A stretch of DNA of 64,000 bases from Eledone cirrhosa (lineage: Eukaryota), in assembly GCA_964016885.1 (NCBI GenBank), contig OZ024741.1, positions 2,542,001-2,606,000 on the forward strand, written 5' to 3'. Below the pieces are notes generated by a model. The model was not told where the DNA came from, did not search any database, and worked only from the letters and a program-made list of their open reading frames with translations. The position numbers were made by a program, and so were the translations under genes. This document shows positions 1 through 21,056 of this stretch, piece after piece; the first letter of the stretch is position 1; every line of letters starts with the position of its first letter.

Positions 1-3000
1 GTCAATAGGTTGAAGAGGTGTAGTCAATAGGTTGAAGAGGTGTAGTCAATAGGTTGAAGAGCTGTAGTCAATAGGTTGAAGAGGTGTAGTCAATAGGTTG
101 AAGAGGTGTAGTCAATAGGTTGAAGAGGTGTAGTCAACAGGTTTGAGAGGTGTAGTCAATAGGTTGAAGAGGTGTAGTCAATAGGTTGAAGAGCTGTAGT
201 CAATAGGTTGAAGAGGTGTAGTCAATAGGTTGAAGAGCTGTAGTCAATAGGTTGAAGAGGTGTAGTCAATAGGTTGAAGAGGTGTAGTCAATAGGTTGAA
301 GAGGTGTAGTCAATAGGTTGAAGAGGTGTAGTCAACAGGTTTAAGAGCTGTAGTCAATAGGTTTAAGAGCTGTAGTCAATAGGTTGAAGAGGTGTAGTCA
401 ATAGGTTGAAGAGCTGTAGTCAATAGGTTGAAGAGGTGTAGTCAATAGGTTGAAGAGGTGTAGTCAATAGGTTGAAGAGGTGTAGTCAATAGGTTGAAGA
501 GGTGTAGTCAATAGGTTGAAGAGGTGTAGTCAATAGGTTGAAGAGCTGTAGTCAATAGGTTGAAGAGGTGTAGTCAATAGGTTGAAGAGGTGTAGTCAAT
601 AGGTTGAAGAGGTGTAGTCAATAGGTTGAAGAGGTGTAGTCAACAGGTTTAAGAGCTGTAGTCAATAGGTTTAAGAGCTGTAGTCAATAGGTTGAAGAGG
701 TGTAGTCAATAGGTTGAAGAGCTGTAGTCAATAGGTTGAAGAGGTGTAGTCAATAGGTTGAAGAGGTGTAGTCAATAGGTTGAAGAGGTGTAGTCAACAG
801 GTTTAAGAGCTGTAGTCAATAGGTTTAAGAGGTGTAGTCAATAGGTTGAAGAGCTGTAGTCAATAGGTTGAAGAGGTGTAGTCAATAGGTTGAAGAGCTG
901 TAGTCAATAGGTTGAAGAGGTGTAGTCAATAGGTTGAAGAGGTGTAGTCAATAGGTTGAAGAGGTGTAGTCAACAGGTTTGAGAGGTGTAGTCAATAGGT
1001 TGAAGAGGTGTAGTCAATAGGTTGAAGAGGTGTAGTCAATAGGTTGAAGAGGTGTAGTCAATAGGTTGAAGAGGTGTAGTCAATAGGTTGAAGAGGTGTA
1101 GTCAATAGGTTGAAGAGGTGTAGTCAATAGGTTGAAGAGGTGTAGTCAATAGGTTGAAGAGGTGTAGTCAATAGGTTGAAGAGGTGTAGTCAATAGGTTG
1201 AAGAGCTGTAGTCAATAGGTTGAAGAGGTGTAGTCAATAGGTTGAAGAGGTGTAGTCAATAGGTTGAAGAGGTGTAGTCAACAGGTTTGAGAGGTGTAGT
1301 CAATAGGTTGAAGAGGTGTAGTCAATAGGTTGAAGAGCTGTAGTCAATAGGTTGAAGAGGTGTAGTCAATAGGTTGAAGAGCTGTAGTCAATAGGTTGAA
1401 GAGGTGTAGTCAATAGGTTGAAGAGGTGTAGTCAATAGGTTGAAGAGGTGTAGTCAATAGGTTGAAGAGGTGTAGTCAACAGGTTTAAGAGCTGTAGTCA
1501 ATAGGTTTAAGAGCTGTAGTCAATAGGTTGAAGAGGTGTAGTCAATAGGTTGAAGAGCTGTAGTCAATAGGTTGAAGAGGTGTAGTCAATAGGTTGAAGA
1601 GGTGTAGTCAATAGGTTGAAGAGGTGTAGTCAACAGGTTTAAGAGCTGTAGTCAATAGGTTTAAGAGGTGTAGTCAATAGGTTGAAGAGCTGTAGTCAAT
1701 AGGTTGAAGAGGTGTAGTCAATAGGTTGAAGAGCTGTAGTCAATAGGTTGAAGAGGTGTAGTCAATAGGTTGAAGAGGTGTAGTCAATAGGTTGAAGAGG
1801 TGTAGTCAACAGGTTTGAGAGGTGTAGTCAATAGGTTGAAGAGGTGTAGTCAATAGGTTGAAGAGGTGTAGTCAATAGGTTGAAGAGGTGTAGTCAATAG
1901 GTTGAAGAGGTGTAGTCAATAGGTTGAAGAGGTGTAGTCAATAGGTTGAAGAGGTGTAGTCAATAGGTTTAAGAGGTGTAGTCAATAGGTTGAAGAGGTG
2001 TAGTCAATAGGTTGAAGAGGTGTAGTCAATAGGTTGAAGAGGTGTAGTCAATAGGTTTAAGAGGTGTAGTCAATAGGTTGAAGAGCTGTAGTCAATAGGT
2101 TGAAGAGGTGTAGTCAATAGGTTGAAGAGGTGTAGTCAATAGGTTGAAGAGGTGTAGTCAACAGGTTTGAGAGGTGTAGTCAATAGGTTGAAGAGGTGTA
2201 GTCAATAGGTTGAAGAGGTGTAGTCAATAGGTTGAAGAGGTGTAGTCAATAGGTTGAAGAGGTGTAGTCAACAGGTTTGAGAGGTGTAGTCAATAGGTTG
2301 AAGAGGTGTAGTCAATAGGTTGAAGAGCTGTAGTCAATAGGTTGAAGAGGTGTAGTCAATAGGTTGAAGAGGTGTAGTCAATAGGTTGAAGAGCTGTAGT
2401 CAATAGGTTGAAGAGGTGTAGTCAATAGGTTTAAGAGCTGTAGTCAATAGGTTGAAGAGGTGTAGTCAATAGGTTGAAGAGCTGTAGTCAATAGGTTGAA
2501 GAGGTGTAGTCAATAGGTTGAAGAGGTGTAGTCAATAGGTTGAAGAGGTGTAGTCAATAGGTTGAAGAGCTGTAGTCAATAGGTTGAAGAGCTGTAGTCA
2601 ATAGGTTGAAGAGGTGTAGTCAATAGGTTGAAGAGGTGTAGTCAATAGGTTGAAGAGGTGTAGTCAATAGGTTGAAGAGCTGTAGTCAATAGGTTGAAGA
2701 GCTGTAGTCAATAGGTTTAAGAGGTGTAGTCAATAGGTTGAAGAGGTGTAGTCAATAGGTTGAAGAGCTGTAGTCAATAGGTTGAAGAGCTGTAGTCAAT
2801 AGGTTGAAGAGGTGTAGTCAATAGGTTGAAGAGGTGTAGTCAATAGGTTGAAGAGGTGTAGTCAATAGGTTGAAGAGCTGTAGTCAATAGGTTGAAGAGC
2901 TGTAGTCAATAGGTTGAAGAGGTGTAGTCAATAGGTTGAAGAGGTGTAGTCAATAGGTTGAAGAGCTGTAGTCAATAGGTTGAAGAGCTGTAGTCAATAG

Positions 3001-6000
3001 GTTGAAGAGGTGTAGTCAATAGGTTGAAGAGGTGTAGTCAATAGGTTGAAGAGGTGTAGTCAATAGGTTGAAGAGGTGTAGTCAATAGGTTGAAGAGGTG
3101 TAGTCAATAGGTTGAAAAGCTGTAGTCAATAGGTTGAAGAGCTGTAGTCAATAGGTTGAAGAGGTGTAGTCAATAGGTTGAAGAGGTGTAGTCAATAGGT
3201 TGAAGAGGTGTAGTCAATAGGTTGAAGAGGTGTAGTCAATAGGTTGAAGAGGTGTAGTCAATAGGTTGAAGAGGTGTAGTCAATAGGTTGAAGAGCTGTA
3301 GTCAATAGGTTGAAGAGCTGTAGTCAATAGGTTGAAGAGGTGTAGTCAATAGGTTGAAGAGGTGTAGTCAATAGGTTGAAGAGGTGTAGTCAATAGGTTG
3401 AAGAGGTGTAGTCAACAGGTTGAAGAGGTGTAGTCAATAGGTTGAAGAGCTGTAGTCAATAGGTTGAAGAGCTGTAGTCAATAGGTTGAAGAGCTGTAGT
3501 CAATAGGTTGAAGAGGTGTAGTCAATAGGTTTAAGAGGTGTAGTCAATAGGTTGAAGAGGTGTAGTCAATAGGTTGAAGAGGTGTAGTCAACAGGTTGAA
3601 GAGGTGTAGTCAATAGGTTGAAGAGGTGTAGTCAATAGGTTGAAGAGCTGTAGTCAATAGGTTGAAGAGGTGTAGTCAATAGGTTGAAGAGGTGTAGTCA
3701 ATAGGTTGAAGAGGTGTAGTCAACAGGTTGAAGAGGTGTAGTCAATAGGTTGAAGAGCTGTAGTCAATAGGTTGAAGAGCTATAGTCAATAGGTTGAAGA
3801 GGTGTAGTCAATAGGTTGAAGAGGTGTAGTCAATAGGTTGAAGAGGTGTAGTCAATAGGTTGAAGAGGTGTAGTCAATAGGTTGAAGAGGTGTAGTCAAT
3901 AGGTTGAAGAGGTGTAGTCAATAGGTTGAAGAGGTGTAGTCAATAGGTTGAAGAGCTGTAGTCAATAGGTTGAAGAGCTGTAGTCAATAGGTTGAAGAGG
4001 TGTAGTCAATAGGTTTAAGAGGTGTAGTCAATAGGTTGAAGAGGTGTAGTCAATAGGTTGAAGAGGTGTAGTCAATAGGTTGAAGAGCTGTAGTCAATAG
4101 GTTGAAGAGGTGTAGTCAATAGGTTGAAGAGGTGTAGTCAATAGGTTGAAGAGGTGAAGTCAATAGGTTGAAGAGCTGTAGTCAATAGGTTGAAGAGCTG
4201 TAGTCAATAGGTTGAAGAGGTGTAGTCAATAGGTTTAAGAGGTGTAGTCAATAGGTTGAAGAGGTGTAGTCAATAGGTTGAAGAGCTGTAGTCAATAGGT
4301 TGAAGAGCTGTAGTCAATAGGTTGAAGAGGTGTAGTCAATAGGTTGAAGAGCTGTAGTCAATAGGTTGAAGAGCTGTAGTCAATAGGTTGAAGAGGTGTA
4401 GTCAATAGGTTGAAGAGGTGTAGTCAATAGGTTGAAGAGCTGTAGTCAATAGGTTTAAGAGCTGTAGTCAATAGGTTGAAGAGCTGTAGTCAATAGGTTG
4501 AAGAGCTGTAGTCAATAGGTTGAAGAGGTGTAGTCAATAGGTTTAAGAGGTGTAGTCAATAGGTTGAAGAGGTGTAGTCAATAGGTTGAAGAGGTGTAGT
4601 CAACAGGTTGAAGAGGTGTAGTCAATAGGTTGAAGAGGTGTAGTCAATAGGTTGAAGAGCTGTAGTCAATAGGTTGAAGAGGTGTAGTCAATAGGTTGAA
4701 GAGGTGTAGTCAACAGGTTTGAGAGGTGTAGTCAATAGGTTGAAGAGGTGTAGTCAATAGGTTTAAGAGGTGTAGTCAATATGTTGAAGAGGTGTAGTCA
4801 ATAGGTTGAAGAGGTGTAGTCAATAGGTTGAAGAGGTGTAGTCAATAGGTTGAAGAGGTGTAGTCAATAGGTTGAAGAGGTGTAGTCAATAGGTTGAAGA
4901 GGTGTAGTCAATAGGTTGAAGAGGTGTAGTCAATAGGTTGAAGAGGTGTAGTCAATAGGTTGAAGAGGTGTAGTCAATAGGTTGAAGAGGTGTAGTCAAT
5001 AGGTTGAAGAGGTGTAGTCAATAGGTTGAAGAGGTGTAGTCAATAGGTTGAAGAGGTGTAGTCAATAGGTTGAAGAGGTGTAGTCAACAGGTTTGAGAGG
5101 TGTAGTCAATAGGTTGAAGAGCTGTAGTCAATAGGTTGAAGAGGTGTAGTCAATAGGTTGAAGAGGTGTAGTCAATAGGTTGAAGAGGTGTAGTCAATAG
5201 GTTGAAGAGCTGTAGTCAACAGGTTGAAGAGGTGTAGTCAATAGGTTGAAGAGGTGTAGTCAATAGGTTGAAGAGGTGTAGTCAATAGGTTGAAGAGGTG
5301 TAGTCAATAGGTTGAAGAGGTGTAGTCAATAGGTTGAAGAGGTGTAGTCAATAGGTTTAAGAGGTGTAGTCAATAGGTTGAAGAGCTGTAGTCAATAGGT
5401 TGAAGAGGTGTAGTCAATAGGTTGAAGAGGTGTAGTCAATAGGTTGAAGAGGTGTAGTCAATAGGTTGAAGAGGTGTAGTCAATAGGTTGAAGAGCTGTA
5501 GTCAATAGGTTGAAGAGGTGTAGTCAATAGGTTGAAGAGCTGTAGTCAATAGGTTGAAGAGGTGTAGTCAATAGGTTGAAGAGGTGTAGTCAATAGGTTG
5601 AAGAGGTGTAGTCAATAGGTTGAAGAGGTGTAGTCAATAGGTTGAAGAGCTGTAGTCAATAGGTTGAAGAGGTGTAGTCAATAGGTTGAAGAGCTGTAGT
5701 CAATAGGTTGAAGAGGTGTAGTCAATAGGTTGAAGAGGTGTAGTCAATAGGTTGAAGAGGTGTAGTCAATAGGTTTAAGAGGTGTAGTCAATAGGTTTAA
5801 GAGGTGTAGTCAATAGGTTGAAGAGCTGTAGTCAATAGGTTGAAGAGGTGTAGTCAATAGGTTGAAGAGCTGTAGTCAATAGGTTGAAGAGGTGTAGTCA
5901 ATAGGTTGAAGAGGTGTAGTCAATAGGTTGAAGAGGTGTAGTCAATAGGTTGAAGAGGTGTAGTCAATAGGTTGAAGAGGTGTAGTCAATAGGTTGAAGA

Positions 6001-9000
6001 GCTGTAGTCAATAGGTTTAAGAGGTGTAGTCAATAGGTTGAAGAGGTGTAGTCAATAGGTTGAAGAGCTGTAGTCAATAGGTTGAAGAGGTGTAGTCAAT
6101 AGGTTGAAGAGGTGTAGTCAATAGGTTGAAGAGCTGTAGTCAATAGGTTTAAGAGGTGTAGTCAATAGGTTGAAGAGCTGTAGTCAATAGGTTGAAGAGG
6201 TGTAGTCAATAGGTTGAAGAGGTGTAGTCAATAGGTTGAAGAGCTGTAGTCAATAGGTTTAAGAGGTGTAGTCAATAGGTTGAAGAGCTGTAGTCAATAG
6301 GTTTAAGAGGTGTAGTCAATAGGTTGAAGAGGTGTAGTCAATAGGTTGAAGAGCTGTAGTCAATAGGTTTAAGAGGTGTAGTCAATAGGTTGAAGAGCTG
6401 TAGTCAATAGGTTTAAGAGGTGTAGTCAATAGGTTGAAGAGCTGTAGTCAATAGGTTGAAGAGCTGTAGTCAATAGGTTGAAGAGGTGTAGTCAATAGGT
6501 TGAAGAGGTGTAGTCAATAGGTTGAAGAGCTGTAGTCAATAGGTTGAAGAGGTGTAGTCAATAGGTTGAAGAGGTGTAGTCAATAGGTTGAAGAGGTGTA
6601 GTCAATAGGTTTAAGAGCTGTAGTCAATAGGTTTAAGAGGTGTAGTCAATAGGTTGAAGAGGTGTAGTCAATAGGTTGAAGAGGTGTAGTCAATAGGTTG
6701 AAGAGCTGTAGTCAATAGGTTGAAGAGGTGTAGTCAATAGGTTGAAGAGGTGTAGTCAATAGGTTGAAGAGGTGTAGTCAATAGGTTGAAGAGGTGTAGT
6801 CAATAGGTTGAAGAGCTGTAGTCAATAGGTTGAAGAGGTGTAGTCAATAGGTTGAAGAGGTGTAGTCAATAGGTTGAAGAGCTGTAGTCAATAGGTTGAA
6901 GAGCTGTAGTCAATAGGTTTAAGAGCTGTAGTCAATAGGTTTAAGAGGTGTAGTCAATAGGTTGAAGAGGTGTAGTCAATAGGTTGAAGAGGTGTAGTCA
7001 ATAGGTTGAAGAGGTGTAGTGAACAGGTTTGAGAGGTGTAGTCAATAGGTTGAAGAGGTGTAGTCAATAGGTTGAAGAGCTGTAGTCAATAGGTTGAAGA
7101 GGTGTAGTCAATAGGTTGAAGAGCTGTAGTCAATAGGTTGAAGAGGTGTAGTCAATAGGTTGAAGAGCTGTAGTCAATAGGTTGAAGAGGTGTAGTCAAT
7201 AGGTTGAAGAGGTGTAGTCAATAGGTTGAAGAGGTGTAGTCAACAGGTTTGAGAGGTGTAGTCAATAGGTTGAAGAGGTGTAGTCAATAGGTTGAAGAGG
7301 TGTAGTCAATAGGTTGAAGAGGTGTAGTCAATAGGTTGAAGAGGTGTAGTCAATAGGTTGAAGAGGTGTAGTCAATAGGTTGAAGAGCTGTAGTCAATAG
7401 GTTGAAGAGGTGTAGTCAATAGGTTGAAGAGGTGTAGTCAATAGGTTGAAGAGCTGTAGTCAATAGGTTGAAGAGCTGTAGTCAATAGGTTTAAGAGCTG
7501 TAGTCAATAGGTTTAAGAGGTGTAGTCAATAGGTTGAAGAGCTGTAGTCAATAGGTTGAAGAGGTGTAGTCAATAGGTTGAAGAGGTGTAGTCAATAGGT
7601 TGAAGAGGTGTAGTCAATAGGTTGAAGAGGTGTAGTCAATAGGTTGAAGAGGTGTAGTCAACAGGTTTGAGAGGTGTAGTCAATAGGTTGAAGAGGTGTA
7701 GTCAATAGGTTGAAGAGCTGTAGTCAATAGGTTGAAGAGGTGTAGTCAATAGGTTGAAGAGGTGTAGTCAATAGGTTTCAGAGGTGTAGTCAATAGGTTG
7801 AAGAGGTGTAGTCAATAGGTTTAAGAGGTGTAGGCAATAGGTTGAAGAGGTGTAGTCAATAGGTTTAAGAGGTGTAGTCAATAGGTTGAAGAGGTGTAGT
7901 CAATAGGTTTAAGAGCTGTAGTCAATAGGTTGAAGAGGTGTAGTCAATAGGTTTAAGAGCTGTAGTCAATAGGTTGAAGAGGTGTAGTCAACAGGTTTCA
8001 GATGTGTAGTCAATAGGTTGAAGAGGTGTAGTCAATAGGTTGAAGAGCTGTAGTCAATAGGTTGAAGAGGTGTAGTCAACAGGTTTCAGAGGTGTAGTCA
8101 ATAGGTTGAAGAGGTGTAGTCAATAGGTTTAAGAGGTGTAGTCAACAGGTTTAAGAGGTGTAGTCAATAGGTTGAAGAGGTGTAGTCAATAGGTTGAAGA
8201 GGTGTAGTCAATAGGTTGAAGAGCTGTAGTCAATAGGTTGAAGAGGTGTAGTCAATAGGTTGAAGAGGTGTAGTCAATAGGTTGAAGAGCTGTAGTCAAT
8301 AGGTTGAAGAGGTGTAGTCAATAGGTTGAAGAGGTGTAGTCAATAGGTTGAAGAGGTGTAGTCAATAGGTTGAAGAGGTGTAGTCAATAGGTTGAAGAGC
8401 TGTAGTCAATAGGTTGAAGAGGTGTAGTCAATAGGTTGAAGAGGTGTAGTCAATAGGTTGAAGAGCTGTAGTCAATAGGTTGAAGAGCTGTAGTCAATAG
8501 GTTGAAGAGGTGTAGTCAACAGGTTTCAGAGGTGTAGTCAATAGGTTGAAGAGGTGTAGTCAATAGGTTTAAGAGCTGTAGTCAATAGGTTGAAGAGGTG
8601 TAGTCAACAGGTTTCAGAGGTGTAGTCAATAGGTTGAAGAGGTGTAGTCAATAGGTTGAAGAGGTGTAGTCAATAGGTTTCAGAGGTGTAGTCAATAGGT
8701 TGAAGAGGTGTAGTCAATAGGTTGAAGAGGTGTAGTCAATAGGTTGAAGAGGTGTAGTCAATAGGTTGAAGAGGTGTAGTCAATAGGTTGAAGAGCTGTA
8801 GTCAATAGGTTGAAGAGGTGTAGTCAATAGGTTTAAGAGGTGTAGTCAATAGGTTGAAGAGGTGTAGTCAATAGGTTGAAGAGGTGTAGTCAATAGGTTT
8901 AAGAGGTGTAGTCAATAGGTTGAAGAGGTGTAGTCAATAGGTTTAAGAGGTGTAGTCAATAGGTTTAAGAGGTGTAGTCAATAGGTTTAAGAGGTGTAGT

Positions 9001-12000
9001 CAATAGGTTTAAGAGGTGTAGTCAATAGGTTTAAGAGGTGTAGTCAATAGGTTGAAGAGGTGTAGTCAATAGGTTGAAGAGGTGTAGTCAACAGGTTTAA
9101 GAGGTGTAGTCAATAGGTTGAAGAGGTGTAGTCAATAGGTTGAAGAGGTGTAGTCAATAGGTTGAAGAGCTGTAGTCAATAGGTTTAAGAGCTGTAGTCA
9201 ACAGGTTTAAGAGGTGTAGTCAATAGGTTTAAGAGGTGTAGTCAATAGGTTGAAGAGGTGTAGTCAATAGGTTGAAGAGCTGTAGTCAACAGGTTTAAGA
9301 GGTGTAGTCAATAGGTTTAAGAGGTGTAGTCAATAGGTTGAAGAGGTGTAGTCAATAGGTTGAAGAGCTGTAGTCAATAGGTTTAAGAGGTGTAGTCAAT
9401 AGGTTGAAGAGGTGTAGTCAATAGGTTGAAGAGGTGTAGTCAATAGGTTGAAGAGCTGTAGTCAATAGGTTGAAGAGGTGTAGTCAACAGGTTTCAGAGG
9501 TGTAGTCAATAGGTTGAAGAGGTGTAGTCAATAGGTTGAAGAGGTGTAGTCAATAGGTTGAAGAGGTGTAGTCAATAGGTTGAAGAGGTGTAGTCAATAG
9601 GTTGAAGAGGTGTAGTCAATAGGTTGAAGAGGTGTAGTCAATAGGTTTAAGAGGTGTAGTCAATAGGTTTAAGAGGTGTAGTCAATAGGTTGAAGAGGTG
9701 TAGTCAATAGGTTGAAGAGGTGTAGTCAACAGGTTTAAGAGGTGTAGTCAATAGGTTTAAGAGCTGTAGTCAATAGGTTGAAGAGGTGTAGTCAACAGGT
9801 TTCAGAGGTGTAGTCAATAGGTTGAAGAGGTGTAGTCAATAGGTTGAAGAGGTGTAGTCAATAGGTTGAAGAGGTGTAGTCAATAGGTTGAAGAGGTGTA
9901 GTCAATAGGTTTAAGAGGTGTAGTCAATAGGTTTAAGAGGTGTAGTCAATAGGTTTAAGAGGTGTAGTCAATAGGTTGAAGAGCTGTAGTCAATAGGTTG
10001 AAGAGCTGTAGTCAATAGGTTTAAGAGCTGTAGTCAACAGGTTTAAGAGGTGTAGTCAATAGGTTTAAGAGGTGTAGTCAATAGGTTGAAGAGGTGTAGT
10101 CAATAGGTTGAAGAGGTGTAGTCAATAGGTTTAAGAGGTGTAGTCAATAGGTTTAAGAGCTGTAGTCAATAGGTTTAAGAGGTGTAGTCAATAGGTTGAA
10201 GAGGTGTAGTCAATAGGTTGAAGAGGTGTAGTCAATAGGTTGAAGAGCTGTAGTCAATAGGTTGAAGAGGTGTAGTCAATAGGTTGAAGAGCTGTAGTCA
10301 ATAGGTTTAAGAGGTGTAGTCAATAGGTTGAAGAGGTGTAGTCAATAGGTTTAAGAGGTGTAGTCAATAGGTTGAAGAGGTGTAGTCAATAGGTTTAAGA
10401 GGTGTAGTCAATAGGTTTAAGAGCTGTAGTCAATAGGTTGAAGAGCTGTAGTCAATAGGTTGAAGAGGTGTAGTCAATAGGTTGAAGAGGTGTAGTCAAT
10501 AGGTTGAAGAGGTGTAGTCAATAGGTTTAAGAGGTGTAGTCAATAGGTTTAAGAGGTGTAGTCAATAGGTTTAAGAGCTGTAGTCAATAGGTTTAAGAGG
10601 TGTAGTCAATAGGTTTAAGAGGTGTAGTCAATAGGTTGAAGAGGTGTAGTCAATAGGTTTAAGAGGTGTAGTCAATAGGTTGAAGAGGTGTAGTCAATAG
10701 GTTTAAGAGGTGTAGTCAATAGGTTTAAGCCGTGTAGTCAATAGGTTGAAGAGGTGTAGTCAATAGGTTTAAGAGGTGTAGTCAATAGGTTTAAGAGGTG
10801 TAGTCAATAGGTTGAAGAGGTGTAGTCAATAGGTTTAAGAGCTGTAGTCAATAGGTTGAAGAGGTGTAGTCAATAGGTTGAAGAGGTGTAGTCAATAGGT
10901 TTAAGAGGTGTAGTCAATAGGTTTAAGAGCTGTAGTCAATAGGTTTAAGAGGTGTAGTCAATAGGTTTAAGAGGTGTAGTCAATAGGTTGAAGTGGTGTA
11001 GTCAATAGGTTTAAGAGGTGTAGTCAATAGGTTTAAGAGGTGTAGTCAATAGGTTTAAGAGGTGTAGTCAATAGGTTGAAGAGGTGTAGTCAATAGGTTT
11101 AAGAGGTGTAGTCAATAGGTTTAAGAGGTGTAGTCAATAGGTTTAAGAGGTGTAGTCAATAGGTTGAAGAGGTGTAGTCAATAGGTTTAAGAGGTGTAGT
11201 CAATAGGTTTAAGAGGTGTAGTCAATAGGTTTAAGAGCTGTAGTCAATAGGTTTAAGAGCTGTAGTCAACAGGTTTAAGAGGTGTAGTCAATAGGTTGAA
11301 GAGGTGTAGTCAATAGGTTGAAGAGGTGTAGTCAATAGGTTGAAGAGCTGTAGTCAACAGGTTTAAGAGGTGTAGTCAATAGGTTTAAGAGGTGTAGTCA
11401 ATAGGTTGAAGAGGTGTAGTCAATAGGTTGAAGAGCTGTAGTCAATAGGTTTAAGAGGTGTAGTCAATAGGTTGAAGAGGTGTAGTCAATAGGTTGAAGA
11501 GGTGTAGTCAATAGGTTGAAGAGCTGTAGTCAATAGGTTGAAGAGGTGTAGTCAACAGGTTTCAGAGGTGTAGTCAATAGGTTGAAGAGGTGTAGTCAAT
11601 AGGTTGAAGAGGTGTAGTCAATAGGTTGAAGAGGTGTAGTCAATAGGTTGAAGAGGTGTAGTCAATAGGTTGAAGAGGTGTAGTCAATAGGTTGAAGAGG
11701 TGTAGTCAATAGGTTTAAGAGGTGTAGTCAATAGGTTTAAGAGGTGTAGTCAATAGGTTGAAGAGGTGTAGTCAATAGGTTTAAGAGGTGTAGTCAATAG
11801 GTTTAAGAGGTGTAGTCAATAGGTTGAAGAGGTGTAGTCAATAGGTTTAAGAGCTGTAGTCAATAGGTTGAAGAGGTGTAGTCAATAGGTTGAAGAGGTG
11901 TAGTCAATAGGTTTAAGAGGTGTAGTCAATAGGTTTAAGAGCTGTAGTCAATAGGTTTAAGAGGTGTAGTCAATAGGTTTAAGAGGTGTAGTCAATAGGT

Positions 12001-15000
12001 TGAAGTGGTGTAGTCAATAGGTTTAAGAGGTGTAGTCAATAGGTTTAAGAGGTGTAGTCAATAGGTTTAAGAGGTGTAGTCAATAGGTTGAAGAGGTGTA
12101 GTCAATAGGTTTAAGAGGTGTAGTCAATAGGTTTAAGAGGTGTAGTCAATAGGTTTAAGAGGTGTAGTCAATAGGTTGAAGAGGTGTAGTCAATAGGTTT
12201 AAGAGGTGTAGTCAATAGGTTTAAGAGGTGTAGTCAATAGGTTTAAGAGCTGTAGTCAATAGGTTGAACAGGTGTAGTCAATAGGTTTAAGAGGTGTAGT
12301 CAATAGGTTTAAGAGCTGTAGTCAATAGGTTGAAGAGGTGTAGTCAATAGGTTTAAGAGGTGTAGTCAATAGGTTGAAGAGGTGTAGTCAATAGGTTTCA
12401 GAGGTGTAGTCAACAGGTTTAAGAGGTGTAGTCAATAGGTTTAAGAGCTGTAGTCAATAGGTTGAAGAGGTGTAGTCAATAGGTTGAAGAGGTGTAGTCA
12501 ATAGGTTGAAGAGGTGTAGTCAATAGGTTGAAGAGGTGTAGTCAACAGGTTTAAGAGGTGTAGTCAATAGGTTTAAGAGCTGTAGTCAATAGGTTGAAGA
12601 GGTGTAGTCAATAGGTTGAAGAGGTGTAGTCAATAGGTTGAAGAGGTGTAGTCAATAGGTTTGAGAGGTGTAGTCAATAGGTTGAAGAGGTGTAGTCAAT
12701 AGGTTTAAGAGGTGTAGTCAACAGGTTTAAGAGGTGTAGTCAATAGGTTTAAGAGGTGTAGTCAATAGGTTTAAGAGGTGTAGTCAATAGGTTTAAGAGG
12801 TGTAGTCAACAGGTTTAAGAGTTGTAGTCAATAGGTTTAAGAGGTGTAGTCAATAGGTTGAAGAGGTGTAGTCAATAGGTTTAAGAGGTGTAGTCAATAG
12901 GTTGAAGAGGTGTAGTCAATAGGTTTAAGAGGTGTAGTCAACAGGTTTAAGAGGTGTAGTCAATAGGTTTAAGAGCTGTAGTCAATAGGTTTAAGAGGTG
13001 TAGTCAATAGGTTTAAGAGGTGTAGTCAATAGGTTGAAGAGGTGTAGTCAATAGGTTTAAGAGCTGTAGTCAATAGGTTTAAGAGGTGTAGTCAATAGGT
13101 TTAAGAGGTGTAGTCAACAGGTTTAAGAGGTGTAGTCAATAGGTTTAAGAGGTGTAGTCAATAGGTTTAAGAGGTGTAGTCAATAGGTTTAAGAGGTGTA
13201 GTCAACAGGTTTAAGAGGTGTAGTCAATAGGTTTAAGAGCTGTAGTCAATAGGTTGAAGAGGTGTAGTCAATAGGTTGAAGAGGTGTAGTCAATAGGTTT
13301 AAGAGCTGTAGTCAATAGGTTTAAGAGGTGTAGTCAATAGGTTGAAGAGGTGTAGTCAATAGGTTTAAGAGCTGTAGTCAATAGGTTGAAGAGGTGTAGT
13401 CAATAGGTTTAAGAGGTGTAGTCAATAGGTTGAAGAGGTGTAGTCAATAGGTTTAAGAGGTGTAGTCAACAGGTTTAAGAGGTGTAGTCAATAGGTTTAA
13501 GAGGTGTAGTCAATAGGTTTAAGAGGTGTAGTCAATAGGTTTAAGAGCTGTAGTCAATAGGTTGAAGAGGTGTAGTCAATAGGTTTAAGAGGTGTAGTCA
13601 ACAGGTTTAAGAGGTGTAGTCAATAGGTTTAAGAGGTGTAGTCAATAGGTTTAAGAGGTGTAGTCAATAGGTTTAAGAGGTGTAGTCAATAGGTTTAAGA
13701 GCTGTAGTCAATAGGTTGAAGAGGTGTAGTCAATAGGTTTAAGAGGTGTAGTCAATAGGTTGAAGAGGTGTAGTCAATAGGTTGAAGAGGTGTAGTCAAC
13801 AGGTTTAAGAGGTGTAGTCAATAGGTTTAAGAGCTGTAGTCAATAGGTTGAAGAGGTGTAGTCAATAGGTTGAAGAGGTGTAGTCAATAGGTTTAAGAGC
13901 TGTAGTCAATAGGTTTAAGAGGTGTAGTCAATAGGTTGAAGAGGTGTAGTCAATAGGTTTAAGAGCTGTAGTCAATAGGTTGAAGAGGTGTAGTCAATAG
14001 GTTGAAGAGGTGTAGTCAATAGGTTGAAGAGGTGTAGTCAATAGGTTTAAGAGGTGTAGTCAATAGGTTGAAGAGGTGTAGTCAATAGGTTGAAGAGGTG
14101 TAGTCAACAGGTTTAAGAGGTGTAGTCAATAGGTTTAAGAGCTGTAGTCAATAGGTTGAAGAGGTGTAGTCAATAGGTTGAAGAGGTGTAGTCAATAGGT
14201 TTAAGAGCTGTAGTCAATAGGTTGAAGAGGTGTAGTCAATAGGTTGAAGAGGTGTAGTCAATAGGTTGAAGAGGTGTAGTCAATAGGTTGAAGAGGTGTA
14301 GTCAATAGGTTGAAGAGGTGTAGTCAATAGGTTGAAGAGGTGTAGTCAATAGGTTGAAGAGGTGTAGTCAATAGGTTTAAGAGGTGTAGTCAATAGGTTT
14401 AAGAGGTGTAGTCAATAGGTTGAAGAGGTGTAGTCAATAGGTTTAAGAGGTGTAGTCAATAGGTTTAAGAGGTGTAGTCAATAGGTTTAAGAGGTGTAGT
14501 CAATAGGTTGAAGAGGTGTAGTCAATAGGTTTAAGAGGTGTAGTCAATAGGTTTAAGAGGTGTAGTCAATAGGTTTAAGAGCTGTAGTCAATAGGTTGAA
14601 CAGGTGTAGTCAATAGGTTTAAGAGGTGTAGTCAATAGGTTTAAGAGCTGTAGTCAATAGGTTGAAGAGGTGTAGTCAATAGGTTTAAGAGGTGTAGTCA
14701 ATAGGTTGAAGAGGTGTAGTCAATAGGTTTCAGAGGTGTAGTCAACAGGTTTAAGAGGTGTAGTCAATAGGTTTAAGAGCTGTAGTCAATAGGTTGAAGA
14801 GGTGTAGTCAATAGGTTGAAGAGGTGTAGTCAATAGGTTGAAGAGGTGTAGTCAATAGGTTGAAGAGGTGTAGTCAACAGGTTTAAGAGGTGTAGTCAAT
14901 AGGTTTAAGAGCTGTAGTCAATAGGTTGAAGAGGTGTAGTCAATAGGTTGAAGAGGTGTAGTCAATAGGTTGAAGAGGTGTAGTCAATAGGTTTGAGAGG

Positions 15001-17178
15001 TGTAGTCAATAGGTTGAAGAGGTGTAGTCAATAGGTTTAAGAGGTGTAGTCAACAGGTTTAAGAGGTGTAGTCAATAGGTTTAAGAGGTGTAGTCAATAG
15101 GTTTAAGAGGTGTAGTCAATAGGTTTAAGAGGTGTAGTCAACAGGTTTAAGAGTTGTAGTCAATAGGTTTAAGAGGTGTAGTCAATAGGTTGAAGAGGTG
15201 TAGTCAATAGGTTTAAGAGGTGTAGTCAATAGGTTGAAGAGGTGTAGTCAATAGGTTTAAGAGGTGTAGTCAACAGGTTTAAGAGGTGTAGTCAATAGGT
15301 TTAAGAGCTGTAGTCAATAGGTTTAAGAGGTGTAGTCAATAGGTTTAAGAGGTGTAGTCAATAGGTTGAAGAGGTGTAGTCAATAGGTTTAAGAGCTGTA
15401 GTCAATAGGTTTAAGAGGTGTAGTCAATAGGTTTAAGAGGTGTAGTCAACAGGTTTAAGAGGTGTAGTCAATAGGTTTAAGAGGTGTAGTCAATAGGTTT
15501 AAGAGGTGTAGTCAATAGGTTTAAGAGGTGTAGTCAACAGGTTTAAGAGGTGTAGTCAATAGGTTTAAGAGCTGTAGTCAATAGGTTGAAGAGGTGTAGT
15601 CAATAGGTTGAAGAGGTGTAGTCAATAGGTTTAAGAGCTGTAGTCAATAGGTTTAAGAGGTGTAGTCAATAGGTTGAAGAGGTGTAGTCAATAGGTTTAA
15701 GAGCTGTAGTCAATAGGTTGAAGAGGTGTAGTCAATAGGTTTAAGAGGTGTAGTCAATAGGTTGAAGAGGTGTAGTCAATAGGTTTAAGAGGTGTAGTCA
15801 ACAGGTTTAAGAGGTGTAGTCAATAGGTTTAAGAGGTGTAGTCAATAGGTTTAAGAGGTGTAGTCAATAGGTTTAAGAGCTGTAGTCAATAGGTTGAAGA
15901 GGTGTAGTCAATAGGTTTAAGAGGTGTAGTCAACAGGTTTAAGAGGTGTAGTCAATAGGTTTAAGAGGTGTAGTCAATAGGTTTAAGAGGTGTAGTCAAT
16001 AGGTTTAAGAGGTGTAGTCAATAGGTTTAAGAGCTGTAGTCAATAGGTTGAAGAGGTGTAGTCAATAGGTTTAAGAGGTGTAGTCAATAGGTTGAAGAGG
16101 TGTAGTCAATAGGTTGAAGAGGTGTAGTCAACAGGTTTAAGAGGTGTAGTCAATAGGTTTAAGAGCTGTAGTCAATAGGTTGAAGAGGTGTAGTCAATAG
16201 GTTGAAGAGGTGTAGTCAATAGGTTTAAGAGCTGTAGTCAATAGGTTTAAGAGGTGTAGTCAATAGGTTGAAGAGGTGTAGTCAATAGGTTTAAGAGCTG
16301 TAGTCAATAGGTTGAAGAGGTGTAGTCAATAGGTTGAAGAGGTGTAGTCAATAGGTTGAAGAGGTGTAGTCAATAGGTTTAAGAGGTGTAGTCAATAGGT
16401 TGAAGAGGTGTAGTCAATAGGTTGAAGAGGTGTAGTCAACAGGTTTAAGAGGTGTAGTCAATAGGTTTAAGAGCTGTAGTCAATAGGTTGAAGAGGTGTA
16501 GTCAATAGGTTGAAGAGGTGTAGTCAATAGGTTTAAGAGCTGTAGTCAATAGGTTGAAGAGGTGTAGTCAATAGGTTGAAGAGGTGTAGTCAATAGGTTG
16601 AAGAGGTGTAGTCAATAGGTTGAAGAGGTGTAGTCAATAGGTTGAAGAGGTGTAGTCAATAGGTTGAAGAGGTGTAGTCAATAGGTTGAAGAGGTGTAGT
16701 CAATAGGTTTAAGAGGTGTAGTCAATAGGTTGAAGAGGTGTAGTCAATAGGTTGAAGAGGTGTAGTCAATAGGTTGAAGAGGTGTAGTCAATAGGTTGAA
16801 GAGGTGTAGTCAATAGGTTGAAGAGGTGTAGTCAATAGGTTGAAGAGGTGTAGTCAATAGGTTTAAGAGGTGTAGTCAATAGGTTTAAGAGCTGTAGTCA
16901 ACAGGTTTAAGAGGTGTAGTCAATAGGTTTAAGAGCTGTAGTCAACAGGTTTAAGAGGTGTAGTCAATAGGTTGAAGAGGTGTAGTCAATAGGTTTAAGA
17001 GGTGTAGTCAATAGGTTGAAGAGGTGTAGTCAACAGGTTTAAGAGCTGTAGTCAGGTTTAAGAGCTGTAGTCAATAGGTTTAAGAGGTGTAGTCAGGTTT
17101 AAGAGCTGTAGTCAATAGGTTGAAGAGGTGTAGTCAGGTTTAAGAGCTGTAGTCAACAGGTCTAAGAGTGGTAGTCAA
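1..17178. repeat. Satellite A: 22-bp tandem array, consensus GTCAATAGGTT(G/T)AAGAG(G/C)TGTA, about 780 copies, continuing beyond the window start
   Basis: Direct reading. Units start at 1, 661 (22x30+1), 16501 (22x750+1) and 17051 (22x775+1). Variation is almost confined to unit positions 6 (T/C), 12 (G/T), 13 (A/G/C) and 18 (G/C). Confidence 0.99.
17051..17178. repeat. Degenerate edge of satellite A: alternating 19-bp and 22-bp units (41-bp dimer x3)
   Basis: GTCAGGTTTAAGAGCTGTA (3-bp deletion) at 17051, 17092 and 17133 alternates with 22-mers at 17070, 17111 and 17152. Confidence 0.93.
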
Positions 17179-17782: not shown

Positions 17783-18025
17783 CATACATACAAACAAACA
17801 TACATGTATACACACAAGTATGTTTGAATACATTATGTATTAATGGATGGATTGACGGATGGATGAAGAGGTAGTTAGATAGATATATGTATAGATGATA
17901 GATATATAGATGTATAATAATATAGATTTATACATATATAGATAGTAAAGAAGAGAGTTAGTCTGACAGATGGATAGATTTATACATACATAAATGGTTG
18001 AAAGAAGGATAGACAGATATATACG
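17783..18025. repeat. Degenerate simple-sequence tract (CATA/CAAA, GGAT, GATA/TA-rich)
   Basis: catacatacaaacaaacatacat; atggatggattgacggatggatg; agatagatatatgtatagatgatagat. Confidence 0.8.
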
Positions 18026-18148
18026 TGGTTTGTACACTATTTAAATATAATAGTTAAACCGAATCACCAAAGAATGTAATCGAATCCACTTAATTTTCTA
18101 CCTATGTCAAAATATCTAGTAAGTCCCTAGCAAATCTTAAAGACTTAC

Positions 18149-18285
18149 CCGTCGCTTCATTAACAGCTGGGAAACTTGTTTGAAGAGGAAGAAGATAAAA
18201 ACCTTGTTAATTATCATCCAGAAGGTTTATCTAAGCTTTCGTTCAGCAAAAGCGTAAGAATATCTAAGTTGTTGTCAGGCCAAGG
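18149..18285 (-). other. Candidate 137-nt spliceosomal exon (5'UTR/first coding or non-coding)
   Basis: Minus strand: acceptor TTTCTCCTTCTTCTTTACTTATCGTTTCAG| and donor CGG|GTAAGT. An ATG at 18217 reads 23 codons (MIINKVFIFFLFKQVSQLLMKRR) to the donor in phase 0. No frame is open across the whole exon. Confidence 0.35.
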
Positions 18286-18397
18286 CTGAAACGATAAGTA
18301 AAGAAGAAGGAGAAATCCATGACTTTAAAACTGAACGAAAATCACATGACAAAAATATCAAAATCCTTAATTTTTTCCAATATACACAAACACTACT

Positions 18398-18538
18398 TGG
18401 CTCCTTGGTTGAGTGTTTTTAGAAAGTTCTCGACACACGGAGTTCAAATCGCGCTGATAAAGTACCAGCAATGAGGGTCGGTGGATTGGCAAATTTGTTA
18501 GAGTGCCGGACAAACTGTTCTACAGTTTTTATTCCGGC
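18398..18538 (+). mobile_element. Degenerate tRNA-derived SINE fragment(s)
   Basis: A-box-like TGGCTCCTTGG (18398) and B-box-like GGAGTTCAAATC (18439), followed by GATAAAGTACCAG...GGGTCG and a second head-like piece (GGATTGGCAAATTTGTTAGAGTGCCGGACAAA). The family resemblance is from memory and unverified. Confidence 0.35.
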
Positions 18539-18595
18539 AAGTATATATAATGTGTAGGTGTGTATGGTGGTTTTCATAATGTGCGTATCAATATA

Positions 18596-18793
18596 CGAGG
18601 CTGGTCTGAAAAGTTCATACGCTAACTATGAAGGAGTGATGCTAGAGCTGTGAAATCTTGCATACATTAATTTCAACTCTTCTAATTAATAACTGCGTTG
18701 TTTCCTTCTAGGGACTATGTTGAAAAATAGATCTCATGTGGTCATTCCATGAGAGTATCTTGGTCAGCATATGAACATTCCAGCTGATCCTCG
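18596..18793 (+). mobile_element. Mariner (Tc1/mariner) non-autonomous deletion derivative/MITE, 198 bp
   Basis: TA on both flanks (18594-95, 18794-95). 31-bp imperfect TIRs: CGAGGCTGGTCTGAAAAGTTCATACGCTAAC versus the reverse complement of the right end, CGAGGATCAGCTGGAATGTTCATATGCTGAC (23/31). Internal AGG GAC TAT GTT GAA AAA TAG (xDYVEK*, 18710-18730) matches the GDYVEK-type mariner transposase C-terminus. Confidence 0.85.
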
Positions 18794-18934
18794 TAGAACT
18801 GTGCGAAAAGAGAAAAGCCTTACTGTGCCAATGACTCGAACTCACAGCAATATATTTTGTGGTTTATTTAATACAACAACCAGTATTGCTTATAAACTGC
18901 TATATTAGAAAGAGGATAGAAACATCTTCCAAAG

Positions 18935-19042
18935 TAACGTTTGACGTGATAACGTGTGACGTGATAACGGCGGACGTGATAACGTGTGACGTGATAACGG
19001 GTGACGTGATAACGTGTGACGTGATAACGGCTGACGTAATAA
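18935..19042. repeat. 15-bp minisatellite TAACGNNNGACGTGA x7 with a 30-bp alternation
   Basis: The variable triplets read TTT, TGT, GCG, TGT, GGT, TGT, GCT; each unit has at least two CpGs. Confidence 0.95.
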
Positions 19043-19180
19043 GCAGAGATATGATTGAAACAGACCAACTCAGCTCCCCTGATGATATTTAACCGAGTCA
19101 TTTCTTGGTGGCTGCTGGCTACAAAATATGTTTCATATATAAAATATCCCGGGACGATGAGGACAGCAGAGATTTTTCGG

Positions 19181-19182
<2 letters not shown>

Positions 19183-19262
<80 letters not shown>
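19183..19262. repeat. (AC)40 microsatellite
   Basis: Direct reading. Confidence 0.99.
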
Positions 19263-19264
<2 letters not shown>

Positions 19265-19284
19265 ATATACAATTACAACAGTGA

Positions 19285-19343
19285 CATAAACAGGTACTCG
19301 AGTTTCGTTGGGTTCTGGGCCCCAACTCATTCAGCCTGTCATG
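19285..19343 (-). ncRNA. Mirror-image copy of the same hammerhead ribozyme motif on the minus strand
   Basis: Exact reverse complement of 19367-19425. Confidence 0.8.
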
Positions 19344-19366
19344 AGAAAAAAAAACTTTATTTTTCT

Positions 19367-19425
19367 CATGACAGGCTGAATGAGTTGGGGCCCAGAACCC
19401 AACGAAACTCGAGTACCTGTTTATG
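19367..19425 (+). ncRNA. Minimal type I hammerhead ribozyme motif (Penelope-like-element style), core variant CUGAAUGA
   Basis: Stem I (CATG)ACAGG / CCTGT(TTATG); core CTGAATGA 19376-83; stem II GTTGGG/CCCAAC with loop GCCCAGAA; GAA followed by palindromic ACTCGAGT as stem III; GUA cleavage triplet at 19413-15. Confidence 0.8.
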
Positions 19426-19510
19426 TCACTGTTGTAATTATTTATACTAAACTCGTCCTATGGACTGAGTGCTCATACTTTTGGATATTACCACTTAACT
19501 TTTACTTCAG

Positions 19511-19513
<3 letters not shown>

Positions 19514-19569
<56 letters not shown>
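19514..19569. repeat. Compound microsatellite (AC)19(AT)9
   Basis: Direct reading. Confidence 0.97.
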
Positions 19570-21056
19570 CATCATCATCATCATCATCACCGTTTTACGT
19601 CCGTTCTTCCACGCTAGCATGGGTTAGACGGGTTGTCCTGTTGTGGGCAGTGTCTGGTCGGCTGACCATGCCTTGCTCATACAGGAACTGATCTGGCTTG
19701 ATTTCTACAGCTGGATGCCCTTCCTAACACCAACCTCATTTACAGTGAGTGCTGGGTGCTTTTTCGTGGCGCCTACACGTCCACTTTACAGTGTGGGCTG
19801 GGTGCTTTTTTTGCCGTGGCACCTCCACGACCACCTTGCGGTGGGGGGGGGGGCATATTGTTTATATGCTTCAGCATGTACCCATGGGAGGTCGGGTACC
19901 CTGTATTACTGCGTGACGCCAGAAGTCACGGTCGTGTGTCATTGACTTTGAGAGGTGTAGTTGGGTAAGGTCGGCTTTTATCACCTCATCCCAAGTCATC
20001 TTGGGTCTCCCCACTCCGCGGTTTCCATCAACTTCTAGTGCTCTGCACCTTTTTATGCAGCTGTCATCCTTCATACGCATCACATGTCCATACCAGCGTA
20101 ACCGCCTCTCCTGCACGCAGCATTTGATTCCTCTTATGCTCAGTCTCTCTCTCAATTCCTTTATGCTTTGTCGTTCACGTATATTACTGTTACACATCCA
20201 TCGGAGCATGCAGGCTTCGTTTCTCTCTAATCTACGTAAGTCTTCCACCTTCAGCGCCCAGGTCTCACTACCATGCAACATCGCTGTTCGGATACACGCA
20301 TCATACAGTCTGCCTTTCATTCTGAGGGAGAAGCCTTTTGCAGCTAGCAGTGGTAGTAGTTCCCTAAACTTCTTCCATCCCGTTCTTACCCTAGTTATTG
20401 TACTTTCTGAGCACCCACCTCCGTTGCTAATTCGGTCACCTAGGTAGCAGAAGCTGTCTACTGTTTCTACAGGGCCCTCCCAGAGATTGGTGGTACTTGT
20501 TTCCTGTGGCTGTTTGCTTGCTGTTTCAGCACAGCTGCTGCATGTGAATCCTACATTCTTAATTAAGCTTCCTGAGATCCCGCTACATCTCTTGTGTACC
20601 CATTGTTTGCATTTGGGGCAGAGAATGGAGTTCCTACCTACACCTTTCCTACATACTGAGCAAGGCCATTTCCCTGAGGGGATCTGGGTTCTGTTTTCTC
20701 GTCTACTTATAAGGACCTTAGTCTTTGTCATGTTGACTTTGAGGCCCTTTCTCTCTAGTCCCTGCTTCCAGGTTTGGAATTTATTCTCTAGTTCTACCAT
20801 AGATTCAGCTATGAGTGCGAGGTCATCAGCATACAGGAGTTCCCATGGGCATCCGGTCTTAAACTCCTCCGTTATTGCCTGCAGGACTATGATGAACAGG
20901 AGAGGGCTAAGAACAGAGCCCTGGTGGACCCCAACCTGTACGCTAAATTCCTCGCTATACTCATTGCCAATCCTAACTTTGCTGACTGCTCCCCTATACA
21001 TGGCTTGTACCGCTTTCACAAGCCATTCATCTACTCCTAGTTTTCTAAGAGCCCAC
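19568..21056 (-). mobile_element. 5'-truncated RTE-clade non-LTR retrotransposon (LINE), about 1.49 kb, with a (GAT/TGA)7 tail, inserted in (AT)n
   Basis: RT C-terminal ORF, an approximately 280-nt 3'UTR (19590-19870), a tandem-repeat tail ((ATC)7 on + at 19568-19588), and (AT)n on both flanks. Confidence 0.92.

Follow-up and report, generated by a model that had tools for sequence, protein, structure and literature searches.

The window, the 64-kb stretch of Eledone cirrhosa DNA analysed in full here, is almost entirely satellite DNA. A 22-bp array (1-17178; 781 copies with 95% matches, in which exact 200-mers recur at 2332 bp) and a 19-bp array (21318-64000; with higher-order repeats whose exact 120-mers are commonest at 6716, 3387 and 3329 bp) have motifs and a strand bias (GC skew about 0.7) in common across the 4.1-kb island that lies between them. 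The island contains microsatellites, a palindrome and a 5'-truncated LINE on the minus strand. A CpG-rich 15-bp minisatellite of 7 copies lies at 18935-19042, and 18594-18760 is a stretch that we take to resemble the end of a mariner-type element. The LINE (19570-21051) has a stop-free frame of 392 codons, covering the end of a reverse transcriptase (RT) and a PHD finger, a (GAT)n tail and a 3' end that, together with the style of the microsatellites, presumably points to an RTE element of an octopus genome. It sits in the (TA)n part of the palindrome's compound microsatellite, so that one tract has been struck by two retroelements.

The two arms of the palindrome (Table 1) match in all of their 80 positions. 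They enclose an A/T loop of 9 nt whose centre is 19355, and the resulting hairpin has a z of -29.8. The loop is asymmetric, and beyond 80 bp the arms enter different flanks. The initial annotation had described perfect 80-bp inverted arms, as we find, within a palindrome running from 19263 to 19447; the core arms stand, but reaching those outer ends adds 2 mismatches. It had also let the unit end at 19447, whereas sequence of a repeat family described below runs on to about 19510, on the right side only. The insertion unit is therefore asymmetric (19271-19510), its right copy exceeding the left by about 71 bp. Deleting 19271-19515 in silico restores (AC)40-GTATATAC-(AC)n, and 19271-19510 is flanked by a 5-bp direct repeat (6 bp in another register), a candidate target-site duplication in low-complexity DNA. 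Given the restored microsatellite and the flanking repeat, the outer 8 bp of the left arm as first drawn (19263-19270) are most likely target DNA and not part of the element.

Table 1. Features of the palindrome, its hammerhead-like motifs and the surrounding microsatellite, in window positions.
Feature	Position	Strand	Remarks
(AC)40 microsatellite	19183..19262	none	left part of the tract receiving the insertion; from empty-site reconstruction
TA-rich short break in the (AC)n tract	19263..19270	none	likely target DNA
Candidate 5-bp target-site duplication, left copy	19266-19270		6 bp with 19271; low-complexity context, moderate evidence only
Inverted 5'-truncated family copy	19271..19350	minus	tail-less; from blastn and arm pairing
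9-nt A/T loop	19351..19359		where the two truncated copies meet head to head; the right copy resembles the family from about 19355, depth jump at 19354-19359
Right arm, direct 5'-truncated copy	19360..19439	plus
One-sided 3' extension ('tail'), about 71 bp	19440..19510	plus	family sequence rather than unique flank; depth in all four runs to 19513
Candidate target-site duplication, right copy (19511-19515), and (AC)19 microsatellite	19511..19552	none
Hammerhead-like motif, plus copy	19370..19421	plus	C3 at 19376, H17 at 19415
Stem I	19370-75/19416-21	plus
Core	19376-83	plus	one inserted base
Stem II	19384-89/19398-403	plus
GAA	19404-06	plus
Stem III region	19407-14	plus	self-complementary; H17 at 19415
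Hammerhead-like motif, minus copy	19289..19340	minus	C3 at 19334, H17 at 19295; predicted cut after 19295
U-rich stretch	19355..19375	plus	ends in its sole AG (19373-19374), overlapping the 5' strand of stem I

A scan of both strands of the whole 64-kb window with a type I hammerhead descriptor gave exactly two matches, one per strand and one per arm, pointing outward. Each forms a three-stem junction with stems I and II, the A15.1-U16.1 pair and an NUH triplet: stem I has 6 bp (one G-U) and stem II 6 bp, alongside GAA, a self-complementary stem III region of 8 nt and the triplet GUA. The core does not follow the canonical C3 U4 G5 A6 N7 G8 A9 ... G12 A13 A14. It consists of 8 nt, CUGAAUGA (CUGA-A-U-GA), one base above CUGANGA, and the extra base follows A6, between A6 and G8. 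The initial annotation had read a complete type I hammerhead in each arm, the copies facing away from an A/T centre. We recover this orientation, both stems, the GAA, the self-complementary stem III and the GUA in each arm, but the extra core base takes the motif out of the complete form. Dinucleotide shuffles of the island gave matches with stems as long as these in 0 of 1000 cases, and any loose match in 8 of 1000; as the descriptor was composed after the motif had been seen, with position 7 free to hold one base or two, the shuffles tell us only that base composition does not account for the fold. The search with hammerhead models that had been suggested at the outset returned no Rfam hammerhead at the gathering score over the window and none at E up to 10 over the island. 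Generic miRNA-hairpin models did match the island in Rfam (E up to 10); these matches reflect the palindrome and not miRNA homology. The strict motif had 0 matches in viral contigs, and the 12 metagenome loci that matched a loose motif, with a stem I of more than 2 bp in 0 of 12, are attributed to chance. The U-rich stretch leading into the plus motif, with its AG, looks like a splice acceptor.

Folding predictions are in keeping with the minimal, dimer-suited hammerhead with palindromic stem III, of the kind carried by Penelope-like elements (PLEs), that had been proposed from the sequence: the predicted probability of the hammerhead fold in a monomer is 0.0006, and the dimer fold is the predicted cofold minimum. 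They also agree with the proposed sequestration of the ribozyme in read-through RNA, the stem II pairs having a predicted probability of about 1e-25 in RNA of the whole element. Read-through RNA from either strand would meet the antisense arm first, and the ribozyme would be buried; with such burial the locus probably leads nowhere. For RNA that begins at the centre, stems I and II are predicted to form (0.82-0.92), but such RNA is still monomeric, its stem III has 2 bp, and it would depend on another copy in trans. On these models the head-to-head pair at the locus can form no dimer in cis, and we predict that the locus has no catalytic activity and, at most, gives rise to dsRNA.

The right arm and its tail belong to a large, high-copy repeat family present in two organisms and mostly truncated within or after the motif. 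A search of public sequencing runs with 19263-19513 listed 10 runs, 5 of them with part of the query (20-35% of sampled words); the matching runs come from two organisms and two studies, and none is on record as RNA. Four of the 10, X1, X4 and X8 among them, were aligned to 19336-19513 at 80% likeness, differences being counted from 4%, and yielded 1716, 815 and 50 contigs and 790 raw reads. As X8 is a restriction-based library, its pile of read ends at 19439 was left out. Summed depth in X1, which is not a copy number, climbs from 36 at 19348-53 to 1,493 at 19354-59 and 85,000 at 19426-37, and does not fall to 6,000 before 19513. Family homology to the locus starts at about 19355 and takes in the right-hand extension, and single pieces of related sequence spanning 19355-19478, 19360-19513 and 19362-19513 join the tail to the right copy. 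Sequence carries on upstream of 19356 in 45 contigs of X1 and 31 of X4, so the family unit is longer than the part aligned here. Behind 19446, the loose ends of 50 (X1) and 53 (X4) contigs consist of (TA)n. A few records extend into 19336-19353, with small differences at the centre, and the 64-kb window holds no other copy of the family. The window copy departs from near-fixed family letters at 19475, 19480 and 19490 in the tail and at 19410 in the arm, and its arms are still identical to each other; the copy may have been inserted recently from a subfamily that had diverged, or one arm may have converted the other.

Junctions within the family are variable. Among 15 of the 20 joints, 14 change strand, each at a different pair of places, 13 being seen in one contig per run and one in two. 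In 11 of these 14 one of the partners begins at 19357-19375, immediately ahead of the core; joints in which both begin there number 0 of 14. The clustering has a P of 0.007 or 0.0001 under two uniform-end models, values that are approximate given detection limits. The joint table does not separate head-to-head from tail-to-tail joints, and because graph contigs under-report symmetric palindromes, the count of 0 of 14 symmetric joints is biased low. These joints bear on whether the palindrome is itself mobile, as a MITE-like or foldback element with one ribozyme per strand that spreads as a hairpin; a non-autonomous ribozyme-foldback family was the second option raised by the initial annotation. 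Terminal inverted repeats with shared ends would mark such an element, whereas the unit here is asymmetric by 71 bp and the 14 listed junctions are all different, none with both partners starting before the ribozyme. Depth points the same way: summed in X1, it is 17-36 over the inner part of the left arm but 1,493-85,000 over the right arm, and both ribozymes are predicted to be sequestered in any full-length RNA. The perfection of the arms does suit a foldback element, perfect palindromes are hidden by graph assembly, and with a few records reaching into 19336-19353 other near-symmetric junctions may exist. On balance we consider a mobile palindrome very unlikely.

The inversion might also be an artefact of assembly or of fold-back in the library. 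No aligned piece lies over the centre of the locus in the four runs, and the best run has 35% of the query words, so this exact locus is without independent confirmation, and the island that carries it is flanked by two long satellite arrays. An artefact would nevertheless sit poorly with an asymmetric loop, with arms that diverge into different flanks after 80 bp, with the plausible microsatellite restored when the unit is removed, and with inverted junctions of the same family in two independent studies. We regard it as highly improbable, the least credible of the explanations considered here.

The unusual core recurs across the family. The indel table has 4 rows, all at 19345-19354 and none in the core (19376-19383), and there are no substitutions in the core among 40 of the 90 variant rows; the core is covered by about 180 raw reads and by a summed contig depth of about 18,000-20,000 in X1. 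The extra base is apparently common to the whole family in two organisms. In stem III, the four runs have T at 19410 in 99, 96, 99 and 97% of depth and A at 19411 in 28, 44, 90 and 74%, and the C-G centre of the window copy is rare. Modelled UA, UG and CG centres all keep the 8-bp self-duplex (-6.6, -5.8 and -10.7 kcal/mol), while the non-pairing CA centre (-1.6 kcal/mol) makes up at most 1-4% of depth. Since the centre bases would lie in a loop in the monomer, this pattern favours the dimer fold, and about two independent changes provide modest evidence that a self-complementary helix III has been kept across copies. Decay is also apparent. G12, which lies in a CpG, is replaced by A at depth shares of 2%, 26%, 4% and 9%, so that many copies have decayed. 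As to covariation in stems I and II, G>A at 19388/19389 reaches 26% in X4, with no partner change among 40 of the 90 variant rows. A second group with a different loop II is found in the loose ends before 19396 (44 contigs, 28 contigs and 161 reads; agreement 0.55-0.70). In the consensus of this group the spacing is still 8 nt (CTGAATGA in X1, TTGAATGA in X4, CTGAATAA in X8), and the core letters differ between runs, with T3 in X4 and A8 in X8. These differences could be due to decay or to a U3/A8 subfamily, perhaps with a hidden U3-A8 covariant.

Taken together, the palindrome is made of two short copies of one high-copy repeat, lying head to head in a TA interruption of the (AC)n tract. We think it likely that they were placed there by a single insertion of an endonuclease-bearing PLE, and the locus is a predicted dead end. 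The locus works like a Penelope-type insertion scar and probably is one. A young truncated PLE insertion was among the options of the initial annotation, and it gains support from the truncated family copies lying head to head, the one-sided extension and the microsatellite target. Published descriptions of endonuclease-bearing PLEs include an inverted truncated copy, a one-sided tail of 30-40 bp and (TA)n or microsatellite targets (in the part of Craig et al. 2021 consulted, PMC8557442), and inverted PLE junctions carry head-to-head palindromes (PMC3846280, likewise in part). With such insertion units the locus shares a head-to-head inverted 5'-truncated copy, a junction palindrome, a one-sided tail, a TA/microsatellite target, heavy and variable 5' truncation and a hammerhead motif near the 3' end. 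The inverted partners of the family likewise meet at variable junctions, all different among the 14 listed, and the target is of the TA/microsatellite type, its duplication being a candidate only. Unlike the published units, both partners here are tiny and of near-equal length, which is why each retains the whole motif, and the tail measures about 71 bp as against the 30-40 bp in print.

A plausible course of events can be drawn from what is described for PLEs, in which both strands are cut and extended and the tail is set by reverse transcription starting at two sites (Frangieh et al. 2024, PMC11167929, in part). The endonuclease would nick the TA interruption on each strand, the two nicks being some 5-6 bp from one another, and each nick would prime reverse transcription near the 3' end of the element, with an inner start at about 19439 and an outer start at about 19510; in this mechanism the two starts would produce the one-sided tail. 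Both cDNAs would stop early, within the U-rich lead-in to the hammerhead, and their joining at the 5' ends would create the head-to-head palindrome. The parent element would have terminal repeats in tandem, between which the motif would serve as a hammerhead that depends on dimers. The outcome would look no different with self-priming on an antisense template, which Arkhipova et al. (2013, PMC3846280) put forward.

No open reading frame with RT/GIY-YIG domains was linked to the family in the window or in the loose ends, which have 30 letters each. The neighbouring RT (19874-21049) was rejected as a parent: it is a separate LINE with RVT_1 and PHD matches, no GIY-YIG match and its own ends. An ATG at 19380 opens a frame in the window that we considered as a Penelope start, but a stop lies at 19410-12 in 96-99% of family depth, and the 35 variable places are spread evenly over the codon positions (11/12/12). 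The lack of a visible ORF and of a coding signal in this frame would suit a different account of the family, in which the repeat is an ORF-less, non-autonomous hammerhead family, either a non-LTR retrozyme or a short PLE derivative, moved in trans by Penelope proteins, the palindrome still being a by-product. Non-LTR retrozymes, as portrayed in parts of two sources (PMC7229834; bioRxiv 10.64898/2026.07.22.740005), share with the family a non-coding, dimer-dependent type I hammerhead and probable movement by PLE proteins, and animal retrozymes are argued to stem from PLE terminal repeats (bioRxiv 10.64898/2026.07.22.740005). Two listed go-back joints (19446 to 19377; 19474 to 19368) speak for either account, being as partial tandems would give, and suggest short tandems elsewhere in the family. 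Retrozymes form head-to-tail arrays with a hammerhead in each unit, whereas the locus is a head-to-head pair and the window contains no tandem array of the repeat; inversion joints outnumber go-back joints by 14 to 2 among those listed, and sequence continues upstream of 19356 in the contigs noted above. We judge this account unlikely and favour insertion of an endonuclease-bearing PLE.

The motif itself has clear relatives. The hammerheads of metazoan PLEs, according to the consulted part of Cervera and de la Pena (2014, PMC4209133), have the consensus CUGANGAH, a small palindromic helix III, a need for dimers and low activity; they have a U-rich lead-in, and dual motifs may lie on opposite strands 100-700 bp apart. 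The motif described here is likewise of type I, with a U-rich lead-in, a 6-bp helix II starting with G-C, a short helix I, a small palindromic helix III suited to dimers and 8 nt between helices I and II. In contrast to the PLE hammerheads, its eighth nucleotide lies inside the core, after A6, instead of between positions 9 and 10.1, and the examined part of the supplement of PMC4209133 has no row with this 8-nt core. In its likeness to a splice acceptor, the 5' strand of helix I recalls the D. virilis Penelope, in which an intron ends at helix I (PMC4209133), as a resemblance only. A base inserted after A6 is known as the core variant A6a, which the portion seen of Perreault et al. (2011, PMC3088659) presents as rare in nature and tolerated, with low activity. 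The insertion here is the same, but unlike that rare variant it is apparently family-wide in a high-copy animal repeat of two organisms. A literature search with the 8-nt core and 'hammerhead' gave no such family among the matches listed, and Lunse et al. 2017 may already describe the core; literature searches on this palindrome found no description of it.

As a palindrome, the locus is of little novelty, since by-products of this kind are known from Penelope-type insertion. What appears to be new, judging from the aligned sequences, is the family-wide core insertion and the longer tail. It is possible, if somewhat doubtful, that the motif is a working, dimer-only hammerhead with a new core layout, in which the extra base has moved from between 9 and 10.1 into the uridine turn (CUGA-A-U-GA) and has been kept by selection in a high-copy family of at least two species, missed by Rfam and by standard descriptors; symmetric scars would also supply editing or small-RNA pathways with perfect 80-bp hairpins. 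If the core variant cleaves, hammerhead descriptors overlook entire families in animals, and the uridine turn is more tolerant than has been assumed. Should it fail to cleave, a Penelope family would be spreading with a crippled ribozyme while still keeping the dimer helix. Ribozyme mutants did not impair PLE insertion in vitro in the part of the published work that we consulted (PMC11167929), and the crippled-ribozyme case would bear on what the hammerhead motifs of PLEs do.
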